Source: Tubulanus polymorphus (taxonomy: Eukaryota > Animalia > Nemertea). From it: 64,000 nucleotides of DNA. Below the pieces are notes generated by a model, which ran no database searches, was not told the origin of the DNA, and was given only the letters and a program-made list of their open reading frames with translations. Made by a program: the position numbers and the translations under genes. Of this stretch, positions 25,169-53,347 are shown one piece after another. The stretch spans positions 16,314,655 to 16,378,654 of the forward strand of contig NC_134033.1 in the NCBI RefSeq assembly GCF_964204645.1, written 5' to 3'. Position 1 is the stretch's first letter. Every line of letters begins with the position of its first letter.

Positions 25169-25636
25169 TCTAAATTTCCAAATTTTTTTTCGCTTGGTTT
25201 AAATCAGACAGGTAACCAAGTAGTTCCAGTGTCAAATTCTAGCTCAAAACTGTGTAATTTCGTGGTAGATCTAAAGGATGGGTGCGGTCCGCATTCTATA
25301 TACTTTACTACTAGCTCAATAACTGTCAAATCTAAAATACTGTGAAAAATGAATATTTCTTTTTTTCTAGTTGGAACGAAACAATCTTTTCGAGGGAACG
25401 AAATGTTTACACACAAACATTACTTCCTTTCCAAGAAAAACATTTCGTTCACACGAAAAGATCATTTCGTTCCCGCGAAAAAAAAATATATATTCCTCAC
25501 CATCTCACCGGGGTTCCGTACAAATTCTAACTGTGAACAGAGGAATCGGGTGCAGTTTGAGCGGCTTGGCGTCAAACTTCATACCGAATAATACGATACG
25601 TATGCTATATTGCATTTTTTCCTATACAGTCAGTTG

Positions 25637-25741
<105 letters not shown>

Positions 25742-25945
25742 CAATTAAACACATACGTTTACGTTACATCGACGTTCATTTACGTCGAGAGTTGGAAAAT
25801 CGACTGAATTCACGACTCTTCATAAAACTCTTCATAATTCACAACTCTTCACGTACGGACGAGGCTGTATAGTTGATTGTAGATAGTTTTACGTACTAAA
25901 GTATTCTACCACAACTACGCGTAAAAAAACACCTATTATGATACG

Positions 25946-28900
25946 ATGTCATTGCTGATTATTAGCATTTTAGCTGTCGTCGATATGGCTACTGCTGCTG
26001 TTGCTGCTGCTGCTGCTGTTGCTGCTGTATTTCCTGCGATGATATTATTTGTTTCGTCGTTCGTCCAGACGTGTGAGTACCAGAAACAGTTTATGATTGT
26101 GATTGTGACCGAAGCGTTCTCGTTATTGATGATTTTATTGAATAATCTGACAATTGATGATATTGCACAATCTATTATTCACTCTGATAGTTTCGAGATC
26201 TATTCGAGGTCCATCTTCAGAGAAAGAGTAATTTTTAATGTCATTGCTGATTTCTGAATTTTTTGATAAATTTCAGATAAATCATCATCAATTGTAGGAT
26301 CTGTTGTTCGTTTGTTTTCCCTCAACCTCGCGTCCAATTAGTACAGTTTTTGTTCATTAGTTCTCAAGAGGGATCTTTTGCATAAAATTGATTTCCTAAG
26401 AGATCTATGTTCTCTGGGCCCACAGTTGTACAGCCATGACCTTTATCCAAGTGGTTTAAATCATAGACTGGTCTTTATAGAAGTCAGACTGGTCTTAAGT
26501 TGTTAGATTGGTTATAAAACCAAAATGAGCTTAGACTGATCTTAAGTTTTTAGATTGGTTACATTACCAAAATGAGCTTAGACTGACCTTAAGTTGTAAG
26601 ATCGGCTACTAAGTCGGGCTAGACTGGTCTTAAGTTGTTAGAATGCCTATAAAACTGAGATGTGCATAGACTGGTCCGTAATCTAAGTAATTACTGTGCA
26701 TTCGATGGACCAGATCTATATAATTCAACACAATGTCTTATTGATTTCTCTACGGACTAGTCTTTAGTCAACGCCATGATTATGGAACCGACCTCTGATC
26801 TTAGGTTGTTAGCAATATACTTAGACTGGTCTTAAGTTATGATATTCCTCATCGATTTTACAACAGGTCACTGTAGATCTTTGGTCGCTTCGTGGACGAT
26901 GAACAATTACACCAAAGCGTTCGACGTATCGGGAAACAAACTAGACGGAATCGGCTCTGGAAACATCGCCGCCGACCCGAATCCTGGTCCGAACGGACGC
27001 CCGTTTACGTCGTATCAATTCGATGCTTCGAACCCCGATGGATACGTCAGAATTCCGGCTCACCCGCTACTGAATTTCACCGGACGTAGTTTCACCCTGG
27101 CGGCCATATTGAAAAGGAACGACCCGAAAAGCTTCTTCGCAGCGGATGTTATCAACTGGAACTGCTCTAGCGCTCTTGACACGTCTGGTTTCAAGTATTA
27201 TTTCGGTCAATTAAAGATGTTCTTATGCGCGGCCAACGATGCTAATTGTAATAAGGATTTGAAGATGAAGCCGAAACTGGATGAATGGCAAACGGCTGTA
27301 ATGAGTGTCGACGCTATGTCTGGTGCTGCCAACATGTGGCTGGATGGGGAACTGAAAACAACACTGAAAACAAATGCTTACGTATTCGACGGAGATATCT
27401 ATATAGGAGGGTAAGACAAATTTGAATAAAAATATCGTTTTTCTTTAAATCTTAGAATAGGGATTTACCCTGTGAGATTTCGTGTGATTCGTTTTGATTT
27501 GAAGTCCCTTAGGAAACCCACCACACATGCCGGGAGCGGAAACAGGAGGTTTGATTTTGAAATTGGAAATCGAAAAGTTTTGTGATTTATTAGTTTAAAT
27601 CGAAGTACATTAATTTCGGTTCCGGTTCTTCCAAACAATCATTTAACTGTCACGTAAATTACATATTACATATATAGGCCACATAGCCCATTTCATATAG
27701 AGGCGGCCATATTGGATTTTTCCCAAGAATTGCGAAACGTGGGTGATTTAAACCTGACCCCTTGTCTGAGCCAGATTGTCTGAGGAGTGCAGGGTACAGA
27801 CAGCAGATTGTCTGACGGGCTGCAGGGTATAGACAGCAGATTGTCTGACGGGCTGCAGGGTATAGACAGCAGATTGTCTGACGGGCTGCAGGGTATAAAC
27901 AGCAGATTGTCTGAGGGGTGCAGGGTATAAACAGCAGATTGTCTGAGGGGGTGCAGGATACAGACAGCAGATTGTCTGAGGGGCTGCAGGGTACAGACAG
28001 CAGATTGTCTGAGGGGGTGCAGGATACAGACAGCAGATTGTCTGAGGGGCTGCAGGGTACAGACAGCAGATTGTCTGAGGGGCTGCAGGGTACAGACAGC
28101 AGATTGTCTGACGGGCTGCAGGGTACAGACAGCAGATTGTCTGAGGGGTGCAGGGTACAGACAGCAGATTGTCTGACGGGCTGCAGGGTACAGACAGCAG
28201 ATTGTCTGAGGGGTGCAGGGTACAGACGGCAGATTGTCTGTGAGGGTACAGTGTACAGATAGTAGATTGATAGTTCACATGAATCCTTAAGCGCCAGTGG
28301 TAAATCGCTATCCACGACCCTCGGTGGTTGACGCGACCATTCCGATGTTTAGTATACACAGAACGCCGTAGACTGGGTGAAATGAATACCTAGTACTCAT
28401 CCACACCTATATCTGAAAACAAGAAAAAAAACAAGTTTCATACTAGAATTCGGTCAAACAATAGCCGATACGTATCGTATTTTTACAGGTAAAGGGACAT
28501 CGAGTGCCTCCACGCTGAGAGTTTTCCCAATAATTACAACTAGAACCGCAATATCGTCTCTCCCTCCTCCTCCCCTCCCCCGACACTAGATTTTCTATTA
28601 CAATTAACAAGTTTGTGAATTATTGATAGATCATTGTGTTCTTCCATAAGACGTTGGTAAATAAAATCATAATTGAATATCGTTCGTATTGCGAGTGAAG
28701 CGGGTTTTCGATGACCAATTCTCCGACCGAACGCGTGGATCCTTTTTTTCCTACGTTTGCAATTCGAAACCAGTTTTCATTATGTATTTATCGTATTTAT
28801 ACACGAACATATCGACGACGAGCAGATGTTTTCCTCAGTTAAGATATGACAAGAAAGTTTTGAAGGTTAATTATCCGTTGGTTAAGTTATACGGACTTTT

Positions 28901-31649: not shown

Positions 31650-32621
31650 TTAATCGCATATAACCGTCTGATCTACCGGCGCGTCTTTCGATCCTATCGA
31701 ATAACGCCACATGCTTAACATCGTTCTACCGAATTTGAGACTTTCGGTCACAATACCATCAATACATGTTCGAACGACGAACGGAAAGTGTCCGTGTAAC
31801 GCCGTACAGTCGGTATGTACGACCATCAGCTTGTGAAACGTCCTGTGCGACACGTGAAGAGATGTACATTTCTTGTCGATATCTCCGTAACGATCTAGTA
31901 ATACTTTTCTCCACTTGCGAGGCGCCGGTAACATCATTCCCATAAAAGGAACTTTAACGAGTGGGAAAATATCGGAGTCGTCCCTTCGTACCCACGGCTG
32001 AAATGTAATATCCATTGTATACGTATGCCTGTGTACGTAAGGCCATATATCGATTAATGGCCAACGTGTATTTGAAAAGGACAATTTCCACGGATGTCTA
32101 TACCGCGTTCTTATCGCATAGTCCTTCACTTGAGAATCGTTTTTGAGAAACAACTCGCGAATTTTCGAAAGATCTCGCACCGGCATCTGAACGTCGAAAT
32201 CGTCGTCCCAGGGCACCGGTCCGTGGTGACGATAGGCGCCGATCAACGAACCGGAAAACAGAAAATACTTGATATTCAATCTGCGCATCAACGCATCGAA
32301 CTGTCTCACCAGTAATCTGTATTGCGCTTTATCTTTCGGTCTTAACTCGCTTTGAATGAACGCGAACCTCTGAAAAGCGGTCATACCGTAACTACTTCGT
32401 TTGTAAATCCGATTTCGCTGATGAAATTCGTAATAACTGTTGATCGTCGCGTTAGCTCGGCCCGCGGCGGTGGCGGTTCCTATCTCGTCCGGTCCGATAA
32501 CGCGCCGTAGCCGCCGTCGAGAGTAACCGGCATTCTCCCACGAAATCGGTCGAAAAATCGCGATGAAAACAGCAACGACGCAGATAACGAATAAAAAGAT
32601 CTTTTTTAGATATGAAATCAT
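31650..32621 (-). CDS. LicD / fukutin-related nucleotidyltransferase-fold protein (type II membrane, intronless CDS)
   Basis: N-terminal TM segment; YFLFSGSLIGAYRHHGPVPWDDDFDV, WPLIDIWP, IFPLVKVPFMG..LPAP, L..RYG. Confidence 0.9.
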   Translation of the reverse strand: MISYLKKIFLFVICVVAVFIAIFRPISWENAGYSRRRLRRVIGPDEIGTATAAGRANATINSYYEFHQRNRIYKRSSYGMTAFQRFAFIQSELRPKDKAQYRLLVRQFDALMRRLNIKYFLFSGSLIGAYRHHGPVPWDDDFDVQMPVRDLSKIRELFLKNDSQVKDYAIRTRYRHPWKLSFSNTRWPLIDIWPYVHRHTYTMDITFQPWVRRDDSDIFPLVKVPFMGMMLPAPRKWRKVLLDRYGDIDKKCTSLHVSHRTFHKLMVVHTDCTALHGHFPFVVRTCIDGIVTESLKFGRTMLSMWRYSIGSKDAPVDQTVICD

Positions 32622-33031
32622 GCTGTTATTGCGTCTTCGCCATCAAGCGCGCGGTTTCAATCTGTGATTGCGTGCGTGCACGTTATCCGTTCGGGTGACA
32701 GATTGCGACGTCTGCGAAAATCTCAATAGACACCACAATGAAACACTAAGTCGCGTTGGGGTAACATATTATGATCTCCCACACTAAGAAAAAAAGAATC
32801 CGAATTTGTTTTGAGTTATTTGTTTGTCAGTTCCGTATATACGAAGTTTGTTCCCGTTTTCTAACTGTTTTATGCTGTAAATATAACCCCTAGTTTCTTT
32901 TAGTCTAAGTTTATGCCTTATGTTATGCACAATCAAGTTTAAAGCAAACATAAGCATATATACATTTAAAACAAATAAACATAGTAGTAGGGACAAAGGA
33001 CAATACATTTTATCAGAAGCAAATCAAAATA

Positions 33032-34364: not shown

Positions 34365-36160
34365 TCACGACCACTCCGAACCGTAAGTCGGAGGCGTCCA
34401 ACGTTGGTAACCGGCATTCAGTTTACATACTGCCGGAGGCCTCCAATATCGGTCATAATTGGATATGTGACGCCCTTTATGGGGATCTTCCGCGTGGGCC
34501 AGCATGCATAGACGGCACCAGAATAAATGTCTGTTGATCACTGTTCCGGTTCCTTTCCATCGGAAATACGAATTATACAGATCGTCGTTTTTGTCTAAAA
34601 TGTGCAGATATTCGGCGAGTTGTTTCGGCGACTCGAAATCGTCAACGTGTATGAACGAGTGCGGTGGAGCCACCCTCTTGTAGTCGTCTTTATGAGCGCC
34701 GTATACAATAGGTAAAACATTGCGACTGAAATACACAGAAAAACAAACATTGAAGTCTTTAGAATCGACACGAATTCGACGAAGACGTTTAATTAAATCA
34801 ACAAACTAACAGCCCCGTACGGGTTGGGAGGGGCGGAATACGTCCTGGGGAACCTCCTTACTGCTCTGGTGACCCCGTACAAATACGGAACCCCCTTTAA
34901 GCTGGGGTCACCCCAGACAAATAGGTCCCGAGAACCACCTTTACAGCGGTAGTGACCCGAGGAATGTGAATGAATTACTTACGACAAACCGTTCTCGAAG
35001 AATTTCTCCGTGATATACTCTCTACAATTAGAATTCTCGAAGGCGAGATAGAATTTATATTTCGCGTCCAACAAGTCTAAACATCTCTCCATCTCGTTGA
35101 CGGGACACTTGAACGGTCCGCACATGCCGTACACGTCCACGTCGATGTGTTTAGACAATTCTTTCGCCAGTTTGCGTCGATCGTTTTTCTCGTTGCAATT
35201 CGACACGAACCAGGCAACTTTCTTCGTTTTGCCCGACGCGTAATTCCTGTTCGGGATCTTAAAACGAACCGATTCGTTGAATCGTACGAACAGCCCGTAC
35301 GGAATCGGAATCGTCGAATCCCGCCGATAATTCGACGTCCAGTTTAAACTCGACTGATACCCGGTTTTATTGTGTAACGGCGTGTGGACCGGCGACTCAA
35401 TCGTGAACATCACTCGTACCTGATGCGCCGGTCTGGGACCCGTCGGCTCGGGGGTACCCGTACCGATCACGTGACGTTCGATCACTATGACGTCAGCGGT
35501 ACCGGCCTTCGACCGGTCGTCGGTGATGTTGCACATGTTCACCGGACAGTCGTCGCGTAGGAATATCTTCTCGCCCGGTTTGCTGAACGTGTTGCTGTAT
35601 TTTTTGAATCCGCCCCACTGTAGAATAGTCTTCAGTTTACGCTTGCCGTTATTCGCCCTTTCAATCGCTTGCCGGGGTACGTGCTGAAGTTGAGCCGTCA
35701 GTCTGATATCGTGGTCCATTTCGGGCCATATCGCCGAGGCGTCGGAAAGCGGTATGAGACCTTCGTTTTTCACGAAATTCACAGCGTGTCGTCGAAGATA
35801 CGATTCGGTATCGATTTCGACGCTCGCGCCGCTTTTCCTCGCAGCCCGTCGGCGTAGGTTCGATTCCCGATTTTCAGCTGTTTCGACGCCCGTTTTCGCG
35901 ACGTTTTTATCCACGACTACCGCCGTACGGTTGCGAATCGTAAAATATCGCGCCTCGTCCTTCCGCGCGGCCGTCGTTAACGATCCGTATTTCGACGTCC
36001 GTAGATTTCTGAATTGTTCGTTCTCGGTGCGCAGTCGGTGGGCGTTCAATCCGCAGACGATCACGATAAATCCGGCCAGAATCATGAACAGATATCGATA
36101 ATTTTTTAACGACGATAACTTCAAGAAATTCCCCGCTTCCGATAAATTCATAGCGCGCAT
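34365..36160 (-). CDS. Alpha-1,3/4-fucosyltransferase (glycosyltransferase family 10), two exons
   Basis: Exons 34983-36160 and 34365-34725 (phase 2). TM anchor; ESP, NWTSNYRRDS, AWFVSNC, YKFYLAFENSNCREYITEKF, PIVYG...PPHSFIHVDDF..PKQLAEYL...Y..YF.W. Confidence 0.93.
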
Positions 36161-36600
36161 ATCCCTGAACTAGATATACAGAAATAGGCCTAAATCACTT
36201 CGAATAATCGAAAACGCCTGTGCCCGTACACGTCATAAAAGTTTTTGTTCTGTTAGGGCCGCGAGCCGGACACAGTACATATGTCATTACGACTCACCTA
36301 TGCGCGTTAGAGACAATAGCGCGGGCGGTCAGCGGACCGTGCAATCAATACCGCGATCTGCCAGAACGAGCGTTAAATATAGACCAAATATAATTAGCCG
36401 CGGTTTGTACGGTTGATTATTTATTCGTATATGAGCCGTGTGTTATTGGGTGTCGACTGGGACGAATTAGTACTTTAATGGTTTACTATTGTATTTGACG
36501 CGCGAGCTTTCGCTACTAGTTAGTGAATAGGTACAGCTTCACCAGATTAGTTGCATAATGGCAACCATTACATTTTTATTGTGTAAGATTGATATGGAAC

Positions 36601-37755: not shown

Positions 37756-39569
37756 CCATTGAAAGAAAACGTTCCATACATAGATCTTTTCGTTGCCAGG
37801 CGCAATGCATGCTCCCCTACCGTTCACTCGTTCACCTGATGAACCTACTCAATGCATTTGCAGCAAAAGCTCATAATTTTAGATAAAATCAATGTCTACT
37901 GATGAGTGAAACTCTTCGAGTCCGTTTATAACTATCAACATCTCACGATGCAAAAGAAAAACGAGTCCGAAATGTTTCCGGCCTGGAGATGACTTTCAGG
38001 ATAAAGGCGAAACGGTGATCATTGGCCATATCTCAAAACCAGATTCACCTCCTTACAGAATACGATTATCAGGATCCAGTTCCACAGTTGTGAGTTAAAT
38101 TTGACTCGGAGTAAACTCATTGAAAATGAATTGAGTGAAACTCAGAGTTAACTCTAACTCGTATACGTAACTGTGGAACTGCGCCCAGACGATTTATGAG
38201 CACGGTACTCGCGCCGCATCGCAGAGGTGAAGGTCATTCGCTCTAATGTAGGATTTAGGATTTAAATATGAACAGTTGGAGAGATTCTGTGAATATTTAC
38301 GTGTATGTTGTTAATGGTGTGATTAGGCGGTTAATTTATCATATAGACTTATTTATGTGAATATTCTATCATCGGTGATCGAAATAAGTAAAGGCGTTTT
38401 TATGCAGGTTGATATGTGTACATTCTGCAACCTGCTCTCAATCATAATATTCAAAAAGCGGTTAATCCATCATATAGATAGACTGATATATGCTGAATGC
38501 TGTGTCGTTATTGGTCGAAGTAAAGTAAGTGAACGAGGTCCCTGGATGCTCGCATACAGGTCGATGTTTGTACTGCTTCAGCCTATAGAAGCTCAATCAG
38601 AACATTCGTTCAATCTAGATAAATAAACAAGAAGCCCAAGATATTTTTAAGATTTTATGGAAGCGATCCATATCGTCACAACCTGATTGGTATTTCACCA
38701 GCGCCGAAATAGTTCAAAGCGGTCAAAAATACTCATCAGATTCCCAATTCATCCCGATGGGAGGGTGAAGAATTTTTACAATACGGTTTAGTTCAACCTC
38801 CCTCGGCTGGGATTCGAGACCACAATAGTTTGAAATCGTGGCGGTGTCTGAGTTTACAGGAAGGTTTTCAATTCCTGCTGATGGAGGTTGGGTGTAATGG
38901 TTGGGTGAAGTTATTGACGTGAATGATGTCTTCTAACTTTTACTCTCAGAGTATTCAAGGTATCATATTGATGAAAATCTATTCTATAAAGACGTTTTGC
39001 ACAGTGTATCTAAAGCTTATCAAAGTTGTGTCTTAAATGAGGCAATGTTGTCAAATTTCCCCTAGCCGGAAAGTTAGACTGTTTAAGGAATAGCCACAGG
39101 TAAGGACTCTTAAAAAGGTCAGCGATTTAAATAGTTTTAATACTCTACCGTCGTCAGGTTGTGCAAAAATATAATTTTCCTTATGATTGAATATGAATTC
39201 GAATATGATTTCCCTTGTGATATTTATTTTTGACAAATCTGTGGCGAGTGTTTTGTGCAATGCAATGAAATATCAATTGAATCGCAGTGCATTGTATACA
39301 CGCTAAATTAAATGTTAATGAGTGTCAGTGTGATTATTCAGCATGAAACTAAATCACCCCTCCCGCCCAATATGAAACAAATATGGCTTAAAATATAAGT
39401 ATTGAATATATGATCTTTGTCCATTGTTGATGATTAATTTCATATTTACGTACACTTATTATAGCAGAATTCGATGAAATACAGGGTGCCAGATTCACGA
39501 TATCTGTCGGAAGATTTGAACATTTGAACATGCAATTTACGATTATATTTTCATTATTTGACGTTATCC

Positions 39570-39700
39570 ACTTCTGAAACTGATAAATAGTTATACTGAT
39601 AAACGACGATCACTAATACGAGATATTGCTATAAAATCAGAGCTTTCAAATGCATTCGAATCGTTGTTAACCTCAACACCGACTTCGTCCAGCAAAACAG
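39570..39700 (+). promoter_or_regulatory. Conserved core promoter and non-coding exon 1 of family A (TGATAA boxes, TATAAAA at 39630-39636); homologous blocks at ~43655-43786 (+), ~48660-48790 (-), ~50950-51078 (+)
   Basis: Near-identical ~130-bp block upstream of all four paralogues, ending in the donor aaacag|gtaa. Confidence 0.8.
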
Positions 39701-39792
39701 GTAATGTTCAGTACAATTATCATCTCATTTCGCTGTGGTGTCGTTCGCTTCAACCAATTCGATGACCAGAGATTTCGAATTCAATTTTCAGA

Positions 39793-41062
39793 ATGGTCTC
39801 GTTGAAAGTCATCGCGCTCTTCGTCTTCGTCGGACTCGTTGCCGTTCAGGCAAAAGGTAAGTTTAATCATTTTGACATATCTCTTCACATAAAACGGAAT
39901 GGTTTGGGGCATATAGATCTATAAGTTTAACCGGTAGACTGGTATTAATATCAATTTAGAGCTAATGAAAAGTAAGTCGGTTATCTGACAATTTCGTGGT
40001 TTCTTCTAACTTCTCTAACGATGAAAAAGTTATCCCGAAACCGTCTGATAATAAACTAACTTTTTCAATATCTACCGTGGGTTTCTACTCGGTATCTTTG
40101 ACTTCGTTTTCTGGATTCTTTTATTCTTTTGATTTTTTGAATGTAAATCTATCGTTGATGATATTCGCGAATATTCGTCTACTTTCAGAAGTAAGCGAAG
40201 TAGAAATCACCCTCGAAGAGGATGCTGGTGGTGAGTACCACAGTACAAACGCTTAAAATGTTGTAGAGCTGATTTGTGTTAACCGAATATAGAATTAAAT
40301 GTTATATAAACAGGCAGGTCCACAGTACTACCTGTTTTCTTGTTTTAGTATAGACCATCTAATTTGTTTACTTCGCCGAAATGAATTGAATGGGTTTAAT
40401 TAATAAACAATCGGGTACCCGCAGTACTACTGTGGCAATCGAGGATTCAACGTATGGCAGGCGAGAGTCCGCCAGGTTCGCTAGTGGTCGTCCGCGTTCG
40501 ATATCTTCTATATTTCAATCAAATCTAAATGAACTTTTCTCTTAAATGAATCAATTATTTTTAAGAAAACTTTATACCGATATCCGAGTTTAAAAATGAA
40601 AGTATTGTATATTTGGTGGGTGCTGCGATAATGTATGGACGGGGAGTCAAAAAATCCATTTCGACCTACTGCTTGTCCACCATCTGGCGGAATAGCTGGT
40701 TTTGCGGATACCCAATTGAATATCGAATGTATGGAAATGTATTCAATGTTATTGCAGAAGGCCATGACATTGAAAAACGTGGGCCGGTCGCCGGAGCTAT
40801 AGCCGTCGAAGCCATCAAAGCAGCTCTCCAACTGGGTACCAATCTTCTGGACAGCATCTCGCAACATTACTACAACAACAAAGCCATGATCTGTTACTGG
40901 AACGATTGGCGAGCACGTGACGCCCGCGCCCGTATCGAGAGAACCTTCAGAAATTGTCGATTCTCGCGAGCTAAGCGTACCTGGGGCTGGGTGAACGGAA
41001 GATGGTACTGCCTGATGAAACAAGTTGCCTGTAAAACTCTGGGCCACGCTCTCGGCAAATAA
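39793..41062 (+). CDS. Family A paralogue A1: secreted prepropeptide, 93-aa cationic 4-Cys mature peptide (candidate antimicrobial or toxin)
   Basis: Exons 39793-39856, 40189-40230, 40758-41062 (all phase 1): MVSLKVIALFVFVGLVAVQAK-EVSEVEITLEEDAGEGHDIEKR-GPVAGAIAVEAIKAALQLGTNLLDSISQHYYNNKAMICYWNDWRARDARARIERTFRNCRFSRAKRTWGWVNGRWYCLMKQVACKTLGHALGK*; AATAAA at 41161. Confidence 0.85.
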
Positions 41063-42588
41063 ACGCTGATGTCGTGCTCACAATGAAGGTCTTTCACACG
41101 AGCAATTATCTTTTCGATTTCAAACCATGAAATGTCAAAACGTATTCAAGTGTGATTGAAAATAAAACTGAATTATCGCATCGGAACTCTGTCTTTAGTG
41201 TGTATTCATCGTTTATGAGGGTGTGCTTATATCCTGTGGTTTCAGGCATAAGTCAAAAATTTAATGAATACCTTTAAGGACACTCAATAGAAAAACTTAA
41301 TGAATCGCGGCTTCACTTAAGGGTATTAATTCTGAAGGCCACCATTCGAACGCAAGGACGAAAATAGATAAAAATTGGCAAAGGAGAAAAAACAAAGGAA
41401 ACAAAAATCTAAAAAGAAAAACGTTCACAAAGGCTACGAATGTCGGATAAATAAACTTTCAAATATCATCAATTGTCGAATCATTTCTTATTTCATATTC
41501 ATTTGTATGGGATCCAATATGTGCCAATGAAATTAAATCAAAATCTCCATCTTCTTATGTCTGATTTTCGTAGCTCGAATGCAGAATCTATTTCACTTGA
41601 AACTTGACGTTACACGACACCTGACGTAGCTCGGATACTCGTCAAAGACGCACAAATTTAGAATCCCGAATTTGGTTTCTTCGCCAAACACCGAACGATA
41701 TGACTATAAGTCGTGTATAAACGCACAAGTCGCATAAAAATATATGGTTCCATATTTCTTTATTTTACTTCAAATTCAATCGACGTCACAGCTCGAGTCA
41801 CGGCTCAGGGACCAGTTGCTCGTTACTATCTACTGGTTAACTCTTACCAACTTTTGAGCAACTGGTAAAGCTAACCAGTAAATAGTTGACATAGTGACAA
41901 TTGAAAGTCCATTGTTACTATGCTATTTATCCGCCAGTTATCTTTAACCAACTTTTGAGCAACTGGTCCCAGTTGCTCAGAAGTTGGTTTGAGTCAACCA
42001 GCGAATAGTTGGCGTAGTGAAAATTGAAATTTCATTGTTACTTTGGTATTTATCCGCCGGTTACCTTTAACCTCGATTGAGAAACTGACACCGGAAGGTC
42101 AAGTTCAAGGTCACGTAGTTTGTGTATTGATTTTTGATACGGCTGTGCAGCGGTCGATTTCAATGTCGAGGATATCAACTTCGAAGTCGAATATTTCGTA
42201 AACTTTCCAAAATATCCGACTTATTCGCAAGTCGTTTATCGTGTTAGTCGAATGAATTTGATGATTGGGCCAAATTTGTACGGTTTATGCGATGTTGACA
42301 ACCTACATTCGCATACAGAACTCGGCGTTAGATTAACATTTCGATTTTGCCCATATTTCGTCGTTAATAAATTTACCGTATTCAGTGACGTATTGAAGTC
42401 AATCTCCCTTCAACAAGTTAGTCATACGTTATTTGAATTGACCTTGCATGTCTAGACTATAAAATATGGCGGAACCCGATTTGTTTATTGCGTGGCGGCG
42501 CGGATTCGAATTTTGATTCTAAATTGCCTCATACATAAACATAAACATTTCAAAATCAGTAATTCATTCGAATAAGAATTAAAACTAA

Positions 42589-42807
42589 GGCTAAACAAAA
42601 ATGATACCTTGTTTCTTCGCAGCGGCCGGGTCATTTTTGTAAAATATGATAAAATTTATAAACAGTTCATTTCTATAGCGGCCGGGTCTGTTATGGTAAA
42701 ATTGATCACGATTTTAAAAAAAGTAATGTATAGGGTAGATAGGCGGCCGGCCGGGTCAACATTTAAGCTCAGCAGAGCGGAGAAACAAGGTATCAATTTT
42801 TTTAGCC
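42589..42807. mobile_element. Second copy of the GGCTAAA-TIR MITE with TAA target-site duplication
   Basis: Reverse complement of 18109-18329; taa|ggcta...tagcc|taa. Confidence 0.8.
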
Positions 42808-42825
42808 TAAATCACACCTGACGAT

Positions 42826-43052
42826 GATATGGTGGCTGATTTGGGACATACTAAAATATTTTTCTGTACGGCTAAAGCAACGATAAGAAAATTTTCAGAT
42901 TGGCCCGTTTTTGGTTTTCTCGCGCCAGAATTCAAAACTTTTGGTTTTCTCGTGCGAGTACCGCCAAAAAACGGGCAAATGTGAAAATTTGTTTATCGTT
43001 GCTTCAGCCGTACAGAAAATTGTTTTAGTATGATCCAAATCAGTCATCATAG
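42826..43052. mobile_element. Foldback/MITE with ~85-bp inverted arms
   Basis: ctgatttgggacatactaaaata..ttctgtacggct.aagcaacgataa..cccgtttttgg versus ccaaaaaacggg..ttatcgttgctt.agccgtacagaaaat..tttagtatgatccaaatcag. Confidence 0.7.
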
Positions 43053-43877
43053 ATTCCTCTGGATTATACGAAAAGATACATTGGTGATTTGACAGACATA
43101 GACTGGAACATAGTGCGGCGTTTATCTTGAAAAACGGTTAAATGTTAGATCCTATAACCGAATCGTAAACAAAATGGCGGCTTTTTCAACCGATGAAATT
43201 AGGCCTGAAGATGAGAAGGGTTAGTATCAAGAGGGTAGGGTTTAGGATCAGGGTAAGGGTTTAGGTGTCGAGTCAATTATAGGATCTGACATCTACCAAA
43301 AAGGGATGAATGACCCATTTGAGATCGTTCGAAGGTCTGTCTGAATTGATTAATTTGTCAGTGCCACATTCACCAATCGATAAGGGTTTCAATCTTGAAA
43401 TGGTAAATTGTTCCTCTTGATTTTGAAATCGGAATACAGAGTGGAAGGTTCGTTCGAATTTCTGGTCTATTCGAAGTATCTAATCATTTTGGTTCTTGTT
43501 CAAACTTCCCCCGGCAGGCGACCATTATGGTTAATTTCTACTTTATTTCTGTGCAACTAACAAATCCACCAATCGCAACGTGCCGGGAACCGATTGGAAT
43601 ATAAGCAAAATTTACGATCGTATTTTCGCTCGGCCCTATAAATTTTGTGAAATCCACTTCTGAAACTGATTAATAGTTATACTGATAAATGACTCTCACT
43701 AATACGAGATATGGCTATAAAATCAGAGCTTTCAAATGCATTCGAATCGTTGTTAACCTCAACACCGAGGTCGTCCAGCAAAACAGGTAATGTTCAGTAC
43801 AATCTTCTTCTCCGTGGCGTCGTTCGCTTCATAATGAAACTATTCAATGACAAAATAATTCTAAATCGAATTTCAGA

Positions 43878-44942
43878 ATGGTTTCGTTGAAAGTCATCGC
43901 ACTCCTCGTGTTCGTCGGATTTGTTGCCGTCGTCCAGGCAAATGAAGTCGGTAAGTTAACAGACGTGTTATAGGGGGTTGGCGAATCAGCAAGTTTTTAG
44001 CGTTGGTCCGGTTTTGTTGTAAAGCATGAAAGGAGCATCGTTTTTCATTTTCATAAAATTTTAATATAAACGCTTTTTGAAACTAACAATTTCTTTTTAT
44101 ATCATGTACCATAACGCTTTTCTATTTTTAGAAATTGAACTCGAAACTGGTGAGTGTAAAAAAGTATTCAATTTTATGGTATTTTTCGACTTCAGAATTG
44201 TATATCATCAGCTGGGAAACCGCCTAGGGCTCCTTCTCGCGGCTAGTGGAGATTTTGCGAGGAGATTATGATTCTTGGTTCAGGTTTTATCTCCACCGAC
44301 ATGGGAAATCACAAGCATTCACTTTAAAATGCTCGTATCAAATTCACGCCCTTTGAATTGGAACGTTTTAAGAACTGGCCCCATCAATTGTTCCTCATCA
44401 GGAACAATTTGGCCTTAACCCTTTTAGGCTTGAGCTTTTTTCATGGAATTTGGCTCAAAAATAACTGCCTCGGTTGCGACGCTACTGGGACCGGTTTTAT
44501 TGACTGTTATTAACCATAATCTATGGGTTAACTGAATTGAAAATGAATCGAGTTAACCCCCGGGTTAAAAGTAGACACCAGTCTATAAAACAGGCCGTTG
44601 GTCTGTAATATTGGACACTTTCTATTTACAGAGGCAGATTCTGGTATGCAATTGTCAAAACGTGCCGGAGGGGCAGCAGTAGCAACTGAAGCCATCAAAG
44701 CAGCTCTCTCACTGGGTACCAATCTTCTGGACAGCATCTCGAAACATTACTACACCAACGAAGCCATGACCTGTTACTGGAACGATTGGAGAGCACGTGA
44801 CGCCCGCGCCCGTATCGAGAGAACCTTCAGACATTGTCGATTCTCGCGAGCTAAACGTATCTGGGGTTGGGTAAGCGGAAAATGGTACTGTCTGATGAAA
44901 CAAGTTGCCTGTAAGGCTCTGGGCCACGCTCTCGGCAAATAA
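43878..44942 (+). CDS. Family A paralogue A2 (92-aa mature peptide)
   Basis: Exons 43878-43950, 44132-44149 (18-nt micro-exon), 44632-44942: MVSLKVIALLVFVGFVAVVQANEV-EIELET-EADSGMQLSKR-AGGAAVATEAIKAALSLGTNLL...CLMKQVACKALGHALGK*; TATAAAA at 43716. Confidence 0.85.
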
Positions 44943-47337
44943 ACGCTGATGTCGTGCTCACAATACACGGTTAGGCTCAGTGATCGTACGATTCGTTTTA
45001 CCTTTTTCACGCGACCAATTTGTTTTTCGATTTCGAATTTTTGAAGTGTCAAATTATATCTAGGTGTGATTGAAAATGAAATTGAAACTCAGTCTTTAGG
45101 GTGTATTCATTTTTCGGTGCAATAAGGGTCTGTTTATATCCTGGTGATTGAGGTATTGTTCCTTCTCATTCTAAAACGTTTGAGGAACTTCGAAAAAACT
45201 AAAGAAATCACTGGCTCGCATCGGTGACAACGCCACCTCGCGGTATTTATCGAGGAATCCAGGAACCATCGAGGATTATTAGGTTCTAGTCCCGATTTTC
45301 TGGCGCAACGTGACGAGGTCATTGAAAAATTCTGAAATATTCTCGAACATCTGGTCGTCTATTAATCGAAGACTTACATGGCCCCCAATAAAAACAATTC
45401 GATGATCTCTTTCAAAAATATGATTTTGTGATGAGTTAGTTTTATAATTAGCATAAAATCAAGTGTGATAAATTCAAATATTTTATATTGATATCAAACT
45501 GTTGATGGTGATAATTGTAATGTAGATAATATTGATGATGGCATCTTATAACGAGTGTTTACCTGGAAAGAAGTCAATGTCCACTGCCTTCAAATTTCCG
45601 TAAACCTCACCTTTCTTGTACAAACTATGACCAGAAAAAATCAGTCCGCGAGTTAAGGATAGGACAGGGCCCAGTTTCACAAAAACTCAAATTTTTGGAA
45701 TAATTGCCATTGGTTACATCACGTTTTCAATAAGGACAACAATTCAAACCTAACCGTTTCAGGCTTAAACTTTTTTCATGAAACTGGGCCCAGGATGATA
45801 CGTTGGGAAGTTAGAGACGTGATTTCGTTTTCACCCGAGCTTGTCTAAAATCCCGAGTTGGTAACGTGCGGGTTAGATGATGTTGTTTTTTTGTAATGCT
45901 CTGGACGAATAAGGATATTCTGCGCTGGTCAATATTGTCTGTTCGTGTGTTCAAATACAGTGAAACTCTTCTCACTAAGACATGATCATATTCTCCTGAC
46001 GTCCACCAGATTCGTGAGGCATAAAACTAGCAATGTATATATAGAAGACCTCATCTGAAATTGAATATGCTTATATAAAAACCGTTACAAACCCAGCTGA
46101 AGATCTGGATCCAGTAACACAGTTGTGAGTTTAACATTTGACTCAGAGTTTACTCATTTCCCCAGGTTCCAGCGCCTTAATTTTATGTACAGCCTGTTGG
46201 CTTGCACTGGATACCTCGTAACCGGTTTACGAAAATAAATTATTATTATTGAAAATGAACTAATTTTCACTCGAAACCGTGGGACTAGAAGCATCACGGT
46301 CGTTTCTCAACGAATTTTCTGCATCATACCCGGTTTCAACATGGAAATTAATTTTACCCCGAATATGCCATATATGGAAGAACCATCTTCACCCGTCAAG
46401 GGATTCGAACCCTTAATTTAATATCTAGGGTTAGAATGGCGCAGAAGTTCAGAGTTGAGTTTGTGGGTAAGAAAAGTCGTACTTAGTCAGCCAACCGATT
46501 CTGCGTCGATTTCTTCTGTTGAGATGCCGAACCCATCTTCACCCGTCAAGGGATTCGAACCCACTACGCTAAAGCTGTTCGCCGAACCCCTTGACCTCAC
46601 GAGTCGTTGGAGTCGTTACTAGCCGACCAGAATCCGGTCGTACCAATCACAGCGCTTGTAACAAACCGACAGTAGACTTCTGTTGGTTTTCCCGTTAAAT
46701 TGACCAATCAGCGAACGTTTTACTGAACAAGGAAGTATTTCGCAAATCCATATATGACGTCATGCGCAACAGCGCCAGTTATGAAATCACACTTCGTGAG
46801 GCCAGGGGGCTGGTGGAAGCGAGTTCGGGAGTGATACCAGACCCCTGGCAAGCGAGGATGTGGAAGAACCAGCATGGGAGCCTAACCGTGAGGAGAAGAA
46901 TTCTGAATTCATCATCAGTTACATCTCAGCAAGAGCCTCTGCGCCAATTCTGAATTCACTTTATCAAATTACGGCAATAATTCAGAAATCACGTGTGAAA
47001 AAACAACGGTTTACCAAGAGAGAGGGGGAAGGGCGATAATTCATGATCAATTAGCCTGAGTAGTTTAGTGATTTGAAGTCTGATTTGCAGAAATTGAATT
47101 TCAAAAAAGGCATTGTCTTATCGATAAGTATAGATATCTGTGATCACGTGCCTCACGAATGCAAATCAGCGGCTTAGACCTCGCCTCCCGGCGCATTACG
47201 ACAATAACTAAACGCAAAATATATTGATTGCTGGTCAGATAGTTTTATCGTGTTTATTCGCTCTCAATATTTTACGTTTTACAATTTAGAGTAAATCGAA
47301 AAATGAGATGATATTACATGCACGACTCTCAGGGTAT

Positions 47338-48553
47338 TTATTTGCCGAGAGCGTGACCCAGAGCTTTGCAGGCAACCTGTTTCATCAGACAGTACCATCT
47401 TCCGCTTACCCAACCCCAGATACGTTTGTAGCGTGAGAATCGACAATGTCTAAAGGTTCTCTCGATACGGGCGCGGGCGTCACGTGCTCTCCAATCGTTC
47501 CAGTAACAGGTCATGGCTTCGTTGGTGTAGTAATGTTGCGAGATGCTGTCCAGAAGATTCGTACCCAGTGCGAGAGCTGCTTTGATGGCTTCAGTTGCGA
47601 TGGCCGCCTTGTAGCGTTTTTCTATTCTCTTTCCCGAGTCCTCCCCTGTAATTATGAAATAGCTAGCTTTATACAGAGCCAGATGTTCAGTGGCTTAGAC
47701 TTTAGTTTAAGACTAACCAATAACTATTACCAATCTAACTTAATCCTAGTCTCACAATTTTGACCCATTTTCGCCCCCGGTCAGGACTGTTCTACTTGGT
47801 TCAAACCTCAATCAAAACCTTTCTATTTATTTACCGTAAATCCAATAAGAGCATTTTGAATGTATGAATTATGAGTTGTATTACTCAGTTAGCCGAAAGA
47901 GGGCGGCCTCAGCGATTTACTGGCACATAATTCACACTTTCTGCAGTCGAAACGAAGTATTTTTACTCACCAGTTTCGAGTTCGATGTCTGGAAATGGAA
48001 AAAAATATATATATAATCGTACATACTATGATATCGATATACATAGTTTCAAAAAGCGTTTATTTCTCGATTATACCGAAACAAAAAACTAGCCTCTTAT
48101 GTAAATGTATATACGTTTCTCTGTTTACTCGACCCTGTATTAAGGATGAAAGACATTGATGTTGACCGTATATCCAGGGATGAAACGTTGCTTTTTAGAT
48201 AGCAACATTTACCCTTACCCCAAATCTTCATCGCATTCAAGTCGTTAAGCTAGGTTTATAAACCTGGTGAACTAGTGAATAAGTGTTATAGTGACAATCG
48301 GAATTGCATTGTAACTAACCATCATGGTATTTGTCCACCGGTAAACTCTAAACAACTTGTTCGAGCAACTAGCCGCTGAGTATTCAAAAACCAACATATT
48401 GCGTAGGTTGCTCGATAACATGTATTTAAGAATTTGTTCGTCCTAGATACTGTGTCTGCATGCATCATATCACTTACCATTACCCGAGCTTTTTGCCTGA
48501 ACGGCAACCAGTCCCAGAACCAGGAGCAGCGCGATGACTTTCAGCGAAACCAT
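47338..48553 (-). CDS. Family A paralogue A3 (91-aa mature peptide); absent from the ORF track
   Basis: Exons 48478-48553, 47971-47988, 47338-47645: MVSLKVIALLLVLGLVAVQAKSSGN-DIELET-GEDSGKRIEKR-YKAAIATEAIKAALALGTNLLDSISQHYYTNEAMTCYWNDWRARDARARIERTFRHCRFSRYKRIWGWVSGRWYCLMKQVACKALGHALGK*; TATAAAA at 48724-48730 (-). Confidence 0.85.
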
Positions 48554-49349
48554 TCTGGAATTTAGAAAAATGCAATCGAGATGCTGATCGAATGAGCTAA
48601 CAAATCCACTGCGAGTGGAGAGGAGAGACAATCGAGTGAGAATTGTACAGAAATGTTACCTGTTTTGCTGGACGAAGTCGGTGTTGAGGTTAACAACGAT
48701 TCGAATGCATTTGAAAGCTCTGATTTTATAGCCATATCTCGTATTAGTGAGAGTCATTTATCAGTATAACTATTTATCAGTTTCAGACATGGATTTCACA
48801 GAATTTATAGCGGAAATACAATCGTAAAATTTTGAAACACCACCTGCCTATGAACTAGAAATTCAAACCCTAATCGCTAATGACGGAACCACTTGTTAAC
48901 CACTGGATAAATTGGAAATATACTTTTCATGGATATTCAGATATTTCGATTTGAATTAAATTCGCAAATCTTCATACGGTCCCTCGTTTCATATCGTTAA
49001 CGCTCTCAATTTTGCATTCGGAAAATGCGAGAATCGCCATTACAAAAAAGTAAATCTACGCTTAATTTCCTTGGGTCGATGTAAAAATTAACGCTTATCG
49101 AGGGAGGGTCTGCAGAGCTACGTGAAATTCGATCAAAACTTTTCTTTCAGAAAACGAAAACAACGAGGACCTCGAGGGACCGCCACAATATGACGCCTGG
49201 AAACTGAAATATATTGCGTAGTATATGAATTTATGTTTTGAAATAAAGCCTCATCTTTATCGTCAGTGACCTATATGTCAGTAATCATATACGATATTGT
49301 TTCTATCATTTATCAGTCTACATCATATATCAGTCTAAAATCATATTAG

Positions 49350-49830
49350 TAAAGCAGTCCCGCGACACGCTACCGATTTCCCTGATTGGCGACCTGTTGA
49401 AATATCACCAGGAGCCACAACACACAATACCTAGTTCTATGATTGTCAACTCAGTGAAATATTTACAGCAGTCCCGACACTACCGAGTTCCCTGATTCTC
49501 AACTCGGTGAAATATTCCCAACACTACCGAGTTCCCTGATTCTCAACTCGGTGAAATATTTACAGCAGTCCCAACACGCTACCGAGTTCCCTGATTCTCA
49601 ACTCGGTAGAATATTTACAGCAGTCCCAACACGCTACCGAGTTCCCTGATTCTCAACTCAGTGAAATATTTACAGCAGTCCCAACACGCTACCGAGTTCC
49701 CTGATTCTCAACTCAGTGAAATATTTACAGCAGTCCCAACACGCTACCGAGTTCCCTGATTCTCAACTCAGTGAAATATTTACAGCAGTCTCAACGCTAC
49801 CGAGTTCCCTGATTCTCAACTCGTAGAAAT
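49350..49830. repeat. 55-bp minisatellite (acacgctaccgagttccctgattctcaactcagtgaaatatttacagcagtccca) between the divergent A3 and A4 genes
   Basis: About 7 units, several identical. Confidence 0.9.
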
Positions 49831-50417
49831 AGAACCTGAATCTATTGAACCTGAAAATGATACGTACATTCCTCCTATTAACTTTATTTCAGTATTGATT
49901 TGTTTCATCGGGAAATAGAATCTTGAACTAATCTTTATATAAGATGTGTTTATTATCAAATTCATTCGTTCAATCCAGATGTTTTTTAATCTTTGGACAG
50001 TGATGAATGATAACCCTAATTTGTTGGCTTGATTTTGGTATCCTTTAAGCGCCCACTGGTCGCATCTGTCGGAAATGAAATAGGTAGGGGCTTTAGATTC
50101 ATTTAACTGATGTCTATTTTAACATTCTGTATCATAACAATATGTTATGCTAATATACCGTCACTGTTTCATTTATGTGTCACTATATTATGACGTGTTT
50201 TCATTCTATCAGAAAATAAATAATGATAATGATAATAATCATAATCACAATGATTATAATCTCGACATGAGAGCACAGCGTGTGGCCTAGAAGTCAGTTT
50301 TGATGGTATTTTACACTTTATTGAAGGATTGCAAAAAAGTCTTCATTGAACGGGGTTGAATAAAGAAAAGTGACTCCATGATTTGAATGTTTAGCAAATG
50401 CGTTTCCATGCCCATCC

Positions 50418-50672
50418 AACCTGATGGCATCGACTCAGCCACGGTACGAACCCCTGCCACACCAGACCGGCTGCGCACGAAAACTTGCGGCACCAATCAG
50501 ATTGCTCGTTGTATAATCGCTGAGGTAAATTTCATGGAAGAACTATAAATGGGAAAACTCGGGCTAAAATAAAACGGGATATCTGATTGGCTGATAATGA
50601 CATAATCTAAGCTGCGCGTGTAGCTGCGCACTCGGTCTCGTGTGGCAGGGTTTCGCTCGATGCCATCAGGTT
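50418..50672. mobile_element. Inverted-repeat element (16-bp perfect TIR aacctgatggcatcga plus internal IR) next to a tRNA-derived SINE-like segment
   Basis: aacctgatggcatcga...tcgatgccatcaggtt; internal cctgccacac.agaccg / cggtctcgtgtggcagg. Confidence 0.6.
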
Positions 50673-51183
50673 CGAATCCCTGCCGGGGGAGGAGGTTCCA
50701 TGCCTACATACCATAACTTTAAGTAAGTCAACATGGATGTTATGTAAATGGCACATTTGCCAGCCGAAGGGCTGTGGGCATTATTCGATCTGCAGCGATC
50801 AATGCCCCCCTAGATAGATCGTGTATTTGAAGTCTCTATAGGCAGGTGGTGTTTCCCATACAGAAGCCCACCAGTCACACACCTGTCGGGACAACAACGA
50901 AAGCGAAATTTTACGATTGTATTTTCCGCTATAAATTCTGGAAATCCATGTCTGAAACTGATAAATAGTTATACTGATAAACGACGATCACTAATACGAG
51001 ATATTGCTATAAAATCAGAGCTTTAAAATGCATTCGAATCGTTGTTAACCTCAACACCGACTTCGTCCAGTTAAACAGGTAACATTTCTGTTCATTCTCA
51101 CTCGATTGTCTCTTCTCTCCACTCGCAGTGGATTCGTTAGCTCATTCGATCAACATCTCGATTGCATTTTTCTAAATTCCAGA

Positions 51184-52419
51184 ATGGTTTCGCTGAAAGT
51201 CATCGCGCTGCTCCTGGTTCTGGGACTGGTTGCCGTTCAGGCAAATAACCCGGGTAATGGTAAGTGATATGATGCATGAAGACACAGTATCTAGGACGGA
51301 TCAATTCTAAAATACATGTTATCGAGCAACCTACGCAATATGTTGGTTTTTGAATACTCAGCGGCTAGTTGCTCGAAGTTGTTTAGAGTTTACCGGTGGA
51401 CAAATACCACGATGGTTAGTTACAATGCAATTTCGATTGTCACTATAACACTTATTCACTAGTTAACTTCAACAAACGCGATAGCAACCAGGGCTGAAAA
51501 CTCACCCGAATGACTTGAATGCGATGAAGATTTAGGGCTAGGCTAAAATGTTGTTACGCATCTAAGGTAACGTTTCATCTCTGGTCAACATCAATGTCTT
51601 TTATAGCAGGGTTGAGACAGTCAGAAACGTATATGCAGTTTCGTAATAAAACCTACATATACATAATGGGGTAGTTTTTTGTTTCGGTATTAAGAAATGG
51701 ATGCTTTTTGAAACTATGTACATATCGTTATCATAGTATGTACGATCATATATATTCTTTTCCATTTCCAGACATCGAACTCGAAACTGGTGAGTAAAAA
51801 TACTTCGTTTCGACTGAAGAAGTGTGAATTATATACCGGTAAATTGTCGAGGGCCCCCCTTTCGGCTAAATGAGAAATACAACTCAATATCCATACATTT
51901 AAAATGCTCTTATAGGATTTACGGCCAATAAATCGAAAGGTTTTAACTAGGTTTGAACCAAGTTGAACAGTCGTGACTTGAGCAAAAATTTCAAGACCAG
52001 GCTTAAGTTAGATTGTTTATAGTTATTGGTTAGTCTTATACGGGTCTCGAGTCTAAGCCACTGAACATCTGGCTCTGTATTAAGCTGGCTACTTCATATT
52101 TACAGGGGAGGACTCGGGAAAGAGATTAGAAAAACGTGGGCCGGTCGCCGGAGCTATAGCCGTCGAAGCCATCAAAGCAGCTCTCCAACTTGGTACCAAT
52201 CTTCTGGACAGCATCTCGCAACATTACTACACCAACAAAGCCATGACCTGTTACTGGAACGATTGGAGAGCACGTGACGCCCGCGCCCGTATCGAGAGAA
52301 CCTTCAGACATTGTCGATTCTCACGCTACAAACGTATCTGGGGTTGGGTAAGCGGAAGATGGTACTGTCTGATGAAACAGGTTGCTTGTAAAACTCTGGG
52401 TCACGCTCTCGGTAAATAA
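51184..52419 (+). CDS. Family A paralogue A4 (93-aa mature peptide); absent from the ORF track
   Basis: Exons 51184-51259, 51772-51789, 52106-52419: MVSLKVIALLLVLGLVAVQANNPGN-DIELET-GEDSGKRLEKR-GPVAGAIAVEAIKAALQLGTNLL...RYKRIWGWVSGRWYCLMKQVACKTLGHALGK*; TATAAAA at 51008. Confidence 0.85.
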
Positions 52420-53347
52420 ATACCCTGAGAGTCGTGCATGTAATATCATCTCATTTTTCGATTTACTCTAAATTGTAAAACGTAAAATATTGAGAGCGAA
52501 TAAACACGATAAAACTATCTGACCAGCAATCAATATATTTTGTGTCTATTTTTTCGTAATGCGCCGGGAGGCGAGGTCTAAGCCGCTGATTTGCATTCGT
52601 AAGACACGTGATCACAGAAATCTGCATCAGATTTATTAGAGGTAGCTTAAACACTTTTTTGTACTTTCCGCAGTAGCGCCCACTACAACAGGAATCCAGG
52701 TTTCGATCGGTGTCCACCGATTACGGAATTCTCGCCAGAGACACTCTGCCTATTCCTGAATAGCATTATCTATGAACCTGATAGAAGTGGTCGGTGCGTG
52801 AGGGAGAATTGATACAGAAAAAGTTACAAGCTATAAACAGATCAAAGAGGAGCAAACTAGGAAATTAACTAAACCACTAGCTCAAGGAAACATTTTCGGA
52901 CTTTATTTCTTCGTCTTTATTCTGCGATTCTTGTTACATTATCATCACAACACGGATATAGTGTTTTATCGATCGCGGGTTAGTTCAGAGTCTCGAATTT
53001 TGTAATCTTTAATACTAGATATGAACCTCCGATCACGTGTTGTCTCCGATCCATTTCTGTCGGCTACAGAGAAACGTTAAAATGATATAAAGAGAATTCC
53101 ACACTGATAAAACGAGAAAAATGATCTCCGAAAATTGTCCTTAAAGCTAATGATTTATTAATTCTAAATTTCTTCAACTGCAACATAATTATAGTCATCT
53201 TCAGGAATATTTAGTGAAGTGCTAAGAAGAACAAACAGACAAGTAAAGTAATAAGGCATGAAACAAACTACGTAGGGGTATAACATCATACAACAGAATG
53301 AATAACGAAACGAGTAGTAATTAATATAAGTTAACTATTTTATTTGA

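Follow-up and report, generated by a model that had tools for sequence, protein, structure and literature searches.

The 64,000-nucleotide (nt) stretch of the ribbon worm Tubulanus polymorphus analyzed here (contig NC_134033.1, positions 16,314,655 to 16,378,654; the whole stretch is called the window, and its own numbering is used below) carries four intact paralogous genes, A1 to A4, which encode predicted precursors of small cationic proteins. They were confirmed where an earlier sequence-only reading had placed them, with A1, A2 and A4 on the + strand and A3 on the - strand. A1 (39630-41062, +; RefSeq LOC141911408, protein P0002) has its TATA box at 39630, the exon-1 donor at 39701, the ATG exon at 39793-39856, a micro-exon at 40189-40230, the last coding exon at 40758-41062 and AATAAA at 41161, with the predicted mature part at 40781-41059. 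Regarding A2 (43716-44942, +; LOC141911407, P0005), the corresponding elements are found at 43716, 43787, 43878-43950, 44132-44149 and 44632-44942, and the mature part is predicted at 44664-44939; a canonical polyadenylation (polyA) signal was not found within 300 nt. A3 (47338-48730, -; LOC141911406, P0004) reads from its TATA box at 48730 through the donor at 48659, the ATG exon at 48553-48478, the micro-exon at 47988-47971 and the last coding exon at 47645-47338 to a polyA signal at 47258 (predicted mature part 47341-47613, -). Lastly, A4 (51008-52419, +; LOC141911409, P0001) has the TATA box at 51008, donor at 51079, ATG exon at 51184-51259, micro-exon at 51772-51789, last coding exon at 52106-52419 and polyA signal at 52499, and its predicted mature part (52138-52416, +) comprises an amphipathic helix (residues 2-22) and a conserved core (~30-92).

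All copies share one plan, having a TATAAAA box, a donor 71 nt downstream, a first intron of 90-105 nt and an ATG one base past the acceptor, followed by the signal exon, an acidic micro-exon of 18-42 nt and a last exon holding Lys-Arg and the whole mature part. The coding introns are predicted to be GT-AG and phase 1 in the four genes. Translated one by one, the 12 coding exons are ordered substrings of the four RefSeq proteins, so that the earlier description of four intact paralogues with one exon plan stands, as do the TATA promoter, the acidic pro micro-exon and the Lys-Arg site in each of them. Its statement that two copies are absent from the track of open reading frames was mistaken, since the four last exons are all present there as stop-to-stop frames. 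The TATA-donor-acceptor-ATG pattern occurs four times in the window and in none of 200 base shuffles; as it was derived from the copies themselves, this count shows repetition, not function.

From 70 nt before the TATA box through exon 1, the copies share 84-100% identity (in A1, the proximal promoter and non-coding exon 1 at 39560-39700, +), compared to 55-75% for intron 1 in five of six pairs and 57-62% farther upstream. GATA-type sites are located at -49 and -33 from the TATA box, two in three of the promoters and one in A2, against an expected 0.2 per 70 nt, the four promoters not being independent; these sites may point to blood-cell or gut expression. A simple pattern for a kappa-B-like site had no match in the promoters.

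RefSeq models exist for the four genes (LOC141911406-409), none being unannotated, and all are named 'uncharacterized protein'. P0005 and P0004 (166 amino acids, aa) begin at an in-frame ATG located 5' of the TATA box, at ~43693 (+) and ~48753 (-), respectively, which reads ACG in A1 and A4; this start is likely an over-extended annotation that masks the signal peptide. A3 and A4 form an inverted duplicate pair, 87% identical over 1763 aligned bases with introns included, whereas in the other pairs the alignment is confined to the promoter and to the signal and last exons. Between the genes lie high-copy repeats and a minisatellite (42586-42812, 46575-46860, 49343-49831 and 50430-50700), from which the duplications and the A3/A4 inversion may have started. 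In a quick tree with 45 of its 80 inner branches unresolved, the window copies cluster as one group (Shimodaira-Hasegawa-like approximate likelihood ratio test, 94), and at least eight family members are present in Tubulanus polymorphus, on two large contigs, as found by a five-sequence profile search.

The ratio of nonsynonymous to synonymous substitution rates (dN/dS) ranges from 0.13 to 0.42 in the six pairs over the last 88 codons, from small counts and without a significance test. A pseudogene origin was rejected, with intact reading frames and dN/dS below 1, and so was an assembly artefact, as the copies differ from one another and DNA runs cover all of them. The sequencing runs X1-X3 behave as DNA, because they cover the introns and have no joint at the predicted splice sites among the 15 joints listed of 253. 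By these sequence comparisons, A1-A4 are real genes under purifying selection and functional-looking.

The predicted mature parts of A1 to A4 have 93, 92, 91 and 93 aa, net charges of +11, +10, +10 and +11, computed isoelectric points (pI) of 9.9-10.2 and masses of 10.4-10.8 kDa, with Cys at 38, 59, 77 and 84 (A1 and A4 numbering) and a C-terminal Leu-Gly-Lys in each copy, in agreement with the cationic four-Cys peptide of 91-93 aa first described. The amphipathic N-terminal helix was likewise supported, as residues 9-27 have a mean hydrophobicity of 0.25-0.29 and a hydrophobic moment of 0.42-0.49, above shuffles in the four copies (p <= 0.004). The predicted hairpin at 60-79 contains five Lys/Arg, no acidic and six aromatic residues.

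The mature part of A4 was the query for all searches and for the structure model. A single-sequence search returned three proteins, all from Tubulanus polymorphus, a five-sequence profile returned 23, and the same profile against an unindexed library matched 96 clusters at E <= 0.001, one of them false, and 49 at 1e-10. P0103 was dropped as a false match, being a SEA-domain mucin. A third homolog search gave eight proteins and no new names. The relatives outside Tubulanus polymorphus are metagenome or metatranscriptome proteins, and of 30 clusters checked, one was annotated as 'hypothetical protein' and 29 had no name. The resulting alignment of 104 sequences was reduced to 80 by dropping 24 gapped rows and then thinned to 58 under 70% identity. 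Over the 104 sequences, the most conserved positions are Arg46 (100%), Arg60 (99%), Asp47 (97%), Thr55 (93%), Cys77 (92%) and Asn41 (90%), followed by Trp40, Trp43, Trp75 and Tyr76 (77-88%) and a C-terminal Gly-x-x-Leu-Asp; Arg46, Asp47 and Arg60 are invariant in the 58 non-redundant sequences. The helix is amphipathic above shuffles in 42 of 65 family members.

An AlphaFold2 model from the 104 sequences reached a predicted local distance difference test (pLDDT) score of 84.3 and a predicted template modelling score of 0.71, with five models within 4 points, while an earlier model from five sequences was poor (pLDDT 54). The predicted elements are a helix at 2-22, strands at 30-32 and 36-40, a helix at 43-53, a hairpin formed by 60-67 and 70-79 and a helix at 81-86. 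As predicted, the mature part is one copy of an alpha/beta domain of ~65 residues and not an orphan four-Cys peptide, and what had been taken for a Trp/Arg-rich loop is instead modelled as the folded helix and beta-hairpin of a small globular domain.

Other traits by which the peptide had been defined are also confined to part of the family. The complete set of four Cys is found in 27 of 80 relatives; core charge has a median of +3 (interquartile 2-6, n=80), with some relatives acidic, against +9 to +11 in the window copies; and of 82 rows, the four window copies alone have the C-terminal Gly-Lys, regarded as a possible amidation signal, which stands in place of the conserved Asp. The four-Cys pattern, the high charge and the Gly-Lys end are, by this alignment, local additions and not family traits. 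Cys59 and Cys84 covary (both in 18, neither in 37 and discordant in 3 of 58 sequences, a count that ignores descent), which suggests a 59-84 disulfide, with the same quick tree placing this pair in two or three groups only. No covariation is seen between Cys59 and Cys77 (p = 0.42), and a Cys38-Cys77 disulfide would follow by elimination. Moreover, 17 of 80 sequences retain Cys77 without Cys38, and Cys or His at position 78 is common where Cys38 is absent.

Regarding known families and folds, Pfam gave no family at E <= 10 for the four mature parts and, over the 104 members, the commonest family among the best 25 of 50 matched four members (E 0.019). Only scattered weak matches were obtained in NCBIfam, PADLOC and PHROGs, the best PDB match by sequence was a designed repeat protein (E 0.013; 0.27-0.59 with profiles), and the best Atlas value for the window protein was 0.82, at noise level. 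Foldseek found no match at E <= 0.001 in the PDB or BFVD, and VIA-align found no Z of 5 or more among 48,161 chains, its best match being the extracellular domain of a sensor kinase (Z 4.1, root-mean-square deviation 3.6, 76 aligned), lower than the Z of 7-8 that VIA reports as typical for unmatched models. At the level of the predicted model, the fold is unrecognised, which does not prove it to be new. The claim of an unrecognised family is thereby sustained for Pfam, PDB sequences and Foldseek: going by its sequences, this is an unannotated cross-kingdom domain family without a recognised fold, of which the cluster is a highly cationic branch. The type of precursor is of an already known kind; the domain is not.

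The cross-kingdom distribution is seen in metagenome contigs, where 13 relatives were recovered among 189 pattern matches. Ten of them have a guanine-plus-cytosine (GC) content of 35-42%; a GT-AG gap of ~400 nt splits the Gly69 codon in the five low-GC relatives examined, and the remaining exon was located in six of the ten, which makes them spliced genes of another eukaryote. One eukaryotic relative (L010:4408-4872) is interrupted by an in-frame stop close to the C-terminus, with an A-run following its core exon, and is likely a pseudogene or a sequencing error. The other three contig relatives are intronless, with 67-73% GC, and the one on L012 is flanked by a histidine kinase/response regulator pair on one side and by an HD-LuxR gene on the other; bacteria, by these features, also carry the domain. 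The relative on L011 has a signal-like start, judged by eye. Insensitive pattern searches gave no relative in GTDB genomes (none of 46 and none of 87 pattern matches), viral contigs (none of 40 and none of 14) or plasmids and phages.

The combination of a signal with a single domain is common, as a crude rule for signals accepts 65 of 134 relatives, many of the gene calls being partial, and 22 of these 65 have a dibasic site near the helix. The eight named Tubulanus polymorphus paralogues have the prepro layout, with a dibasic site near the helix in seven. In L001:2165-2389, an AG acceptor followed by a stretch of basic residues is read in the frame ahead of the annotated Met, so that some 'unsecreted' relatives may in fact be terminal exons of prepro genes for which the signal exon was overlooked. 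Besides single-domain proteins, there are tandem two-domain relatives (P0024, P0025, P0026, P0129 and P0094), an EF-hand fusion (P0044) and relatives with Cys-rich tails.

In three proteins of one clade, P0087, P0092 and P0106, the domain is C-terminal to a Ser/Thr-rich region, with 43% and 39% Ser+Thr over 75 residues, chosen by eye, in P0087 and P0106. In the available text of PMC4823867, the insertion region of ~75 residues in the aerolysin family is 23-44% Ser+Thr, and lysenin has the pore module first and then the lipid-binding domain; lectins or membrane-binding modules make up most of the accessory domains of aerolysin-like proteins, according to the available part of PMC3110756. Atlas ties P0087 to aerolysin, ETX/MTX2 and monalysin clusters at 0.90-0.92, with a recognition of 1883 (mark 2300) and 125-139 shared features, below the mark of 170, and HMMER gave no Pfam or PDB sequence match for this region of the fusions. 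The fusion partner is possibly aerolysin-like, a lead from one clade and not a finding. These three proteins resemble lysenin-type members of the aerolysin family in the N-terminal Ser/Thr-rich module and C-terminal accessory domain, but the accessory domain here is the new one and not a beta-trefoil, and the window genes are devoid of the Ser/Thr-rich module.

Among known defence proteins, the closest functional model is provided by actinoporins, which have a signal, an acidic pro-piece, Lys-Arg, a Gly/Ala-rich amphipathic N-terminal helix and an aromatic-rich binding core, within a Cys-free beta-sandwich of ~175-180 aa. The likeness lies in the amphipathic helix directly after the dibasic site; however, the window proteins are half as long (91-93 aa), have four Cys and show no sequence or fold match to them. 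Anti-lipopolysaccharide factors (ALFs; ALF-L and ALFPm3), in the portion of PMC10672452 available, similarly are ~100 aa long and combine three helices, the N-terminal one hydrophobic, with a sheet of four strands and a cationic and aromatic beta-hairpin, features that are predicted here, with hairpin strands at 60-67 and 70-79 forming the cationic amphipathic hairpin. The ends of this hairpin may also resemble the ALF loop locally. ALFs differ in having one N-terminal and two C-terminal helices (PMC10672452), compared to the N-terminal, central and C-terminal helices of the model, and in a single disulfide that closes the hairpin, while here Cys59 covaries with Cys84 and not with Cys77, the pairing being the putative one given above. 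The window proteins gave no Pfam match to ALFs, the ALF fold is not among the best 50 of 490 VIA rows with Z >= 2, and Foldseek gave none at E <= 0.001.

Big defensins share the prepro precursor, the hydrophobic N-terminal part and the cationic Cys-containing C-terminal part (PMC10672452 and PMC6805989, both in their available text), and the hydrophobic region is present in the window proteins as helix 9-27. Nevertheless, their beta-defensin domain has six Cys and three disulfides, against four Cys in the four copies (PMC10672452, same portion), and the core here is predicted as mixed alpha/beta, with Cys optional across the family and no Pfam or PDB sequence match. As for the nemertean Cerebratulus cytolysin A-III and the parborlysins (9.4-10.1 kDa, pI 10-10.4), the size of ~10 kDa, pI of ~10 and an amphipathic helix are common to both sides, but theirs are Lys-rich, largely helical proteins with six Cys in three disulfides and a C-terminal amphipathic helix; in the accessible text of PMC6410017, cytotoxin A-III is reported from heteronemerteans among nine species examined. 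The window proteins have four Cys, an N-terminal amphipathic helix, four predicted strands and no sequence match to these toxins. The absence of the six-Cys frameworks of big defensins and of parborlysin/cytolysin A-III, noted in the sequence-only reading, thus holds in the four copies, and the cluster proteins are, by sequence and predicted architecture, none of big defensin, anti-LPS factor, cytolysin A-III and actinoporin. None of six family motifs or six LOC identifiers was found in the literature, in a search that covered few subscription journals and no figures, and no such toxin or antimicrobial peptides appeared in the nemertean literature covered. For a different palaeonemertean, PMC12846013 describes five unannotated Cys-rich peptides and gives no sequences in its text.

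Membrane activity and a role in defence or venom, put forward in the sequence-only reading, are candidate functions. Taken with some reserve, at a little less than an even chance, the cluster would encode secreted, convertase-activated defence proteins, in which the core attaches to a ligand on a membrane or cell surface and the freed helix perturbs the membrane. The precursor would comprise a hydrophobic signal-like start, an acidic spacer, the Lys-Arg site, the amphipathic helix and the conserved small domain, with secretion and convertase cleavage freeing the N-terminus of the helix and with disulfides presumably formed between Cys59 and Cys84 (covariation) and Cys38 and Cys77 (elimination). 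Arg46, Asp47 and Arg60, together with Trp40, Trp43, Trp75 and Tyr76, could then bind the head of a lipid or glycan that bears a phosphate or acid group; the cationic hairpin 60-79 would attract the protein to anionic surfaces, and the Gly/Ala-rich helix would insert and disturb the bilayer. The target would be foreign membranes, most likely microbial. On this reading, the protein would act like an actinoporin, an ALF or a big defensin, each of which joins an N-terminal hydrophobic piece to a small cationic binding domain.

This membrane-defence reading is favoured by the prepro layout in the four copies and in the eight named worm paralogues, the local expansion with near-identical promoters, and the core charge of +9 to +11 compared to the family median. 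It also draws on the cationic/aromatic hairpin and the helix amphipathicity in 42 of 65 members, on the domain following a Ser/Thr-rich stretch in P0087 and P0106, a position taken in lysenin by the lipid-binding domain, on the Atlas links of P0087, and on a second short cationic prepropeptide family adjoining the cluster. A patchy distribution over eukaryotes and a few bacteria fits a conflict effector. Several points weigh on the other side. A helix packed on a small sheet would look amphipathic too, and the model orders residues 11-30 (pLDDT ~86); most relatives are weakly cationic, some being acidic; the crude signal rule is passed by fewer than half of the relatives, with the partial gene calls mentioned above. 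Arg46, Asp47 and Arg60 are invariant and dN/dS is low, and antimicrobial peptides and toxins usually evolve fast. In addition, the aerolysin-like reading is weak, with HMMER blank and the Atlas values under their own marks, in a single clade.

The main rival, which we regard as rather unlikely, is a recognition protein that only binds, such as a lectin-like opsonin, an agglutinin or a mucus component, the helix being part of the fold and no lysis taking place. Accessory domains of the aerolysin-like proteins being mostly lectin or membrane-binding modules (PMC3110756, available part) is in line with it, and so is a weak fold likeness solely to extracellular ligand-sensor domains, with the best Z of 4.1. 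Invariant polar and aromatic residues beside a variable charge would be expected of such a protein, and the tandem forms P0024, P0025, P0026 and P0094 suggest multivalent binding. Still, no lectin family or fold was matched, and a strong positive charge of the mature part, behind an acidic pro-piece with a convertase site, is more typical of effectors that have to be kept inactive. Less credible, indeed improbable, is a mucus or proboscis toxin against animal cells, arisen as an independent functional analogue of the heteronemertean cytolysins: the tandem duplication would suit it, nemerteans secrete peptide toxins in mucus and proboscis, and the size of 10.4-10.8 kDa and pI of ~10 equal those of parborlysins (PMC6410017, accessible text), but dN/dS is low, no sequence likeness to heteronemertean cytolysins was found, the domain is widespread in organisms without sign of venom, bacteria included, and the family motifs were not found in the nemertean toxin supplement of PMC9132205.

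A similarly low likelihood is given to a small secreted enzyme, or a redox or metal-binding protein, using Cys77 with Arg46, Asp47 and Arg60. The retention of Cys77 in 17 of 80 sequences without Cys38 means that it is not merely half of a disulfide, and the frequent Cys or His at 78 in such sequences and the three invariant charged residues speak for this reading; against it, the four Cys can all be paired in the window copies, the core has just ~60 residues, and the searches matched neither an enzyme family nor an enzyme fold. The least credence, as very improbable, goes to a signalling ligand (a hormone, a pheromone or one for gamete recognition) matured in the manner of neuropeptides. Although the signal, dibasic site and possible Gly-Lys amidation signal also fit hormone precursors, and strong purifying selection would agree, Gly-Lys is restricted to the four window copies, and bacterial and unsecreted relatives and fusions do not suit a receptor-ligand system.

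Downstream of the cluster, a second two-gene family is located at 54814-55547 (+) and 58068-58879 (+). Its members have a signal-like start, a long pro-piece, first Ala/Pro-rich and then acidic, an Arg-Ser-Lys-Arg site and a short mature part, cationic and helix-like, whose ~25 residues are encoded by two exons; judged from these features, they look like linear antimicrobial-peptide precursors, and the first exon had no significant Pfam match. Just upstream of the cluster are a LicD-family gene (31650-32642, -) and a GT10 fucosyltransferase gene (34365-36169, -). Meanwhile, two long frames at 786-5504 (+) combine a C-type lectin-like piece with LDL-receptor A repeats, leucine-rich repeats and a rhodopsin-family seven-transmembrane region, which we take to be a GRL101-like receptor, and exons of a large secreted protein (6856-17924, -) include three kringle domains, a Thr/Pro-rich repeat and Cys-rich pieces, presumably von Willebrand-like. 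Further coding frames lie at 21115-21981 (-), 22258-24178 (-; a Cys-rich pair) and 26836-27414 (+), with no Pfam match at E 0.001 for the three that were scanned within 21115-27414; the first looks like a PI-PLC X-type domain and the last resembles a laminin-G-type domain.

In a broader and doubtful form, this would be an undescribed cross-kingdom membrane-targeting domain whose fold is not yet in the PDB, acting in marine invertebrates as a stand-alone, miniature actinoporin-like pore former or antimicrobial with a convertase-released helix, and elsewhere as the receptor-binding module of aerolysin-type pore formers; the ribbon-worm cluster would then represent a branch of it that expanded recently, is super-charged and may be amidated. 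Invertebrate defence peptides are usually sought through known Cys frameworks, and this family, whose Cys are optional, would be missed in that way. The mature domain is small, stable and encoded in a single exon; its three charged residues are invariant, its fold matches none that is known, and it is directly testable. If it is a membrane-targeting module common to stand-alone effectors and pore-forming proteins, it would contribute a novel receptor-binding fold as well as a novel class of host-defence proteins in the sea; if it is a binding protein only, it would still be an unannotated domain family spanning eukaryotes and bacteria.

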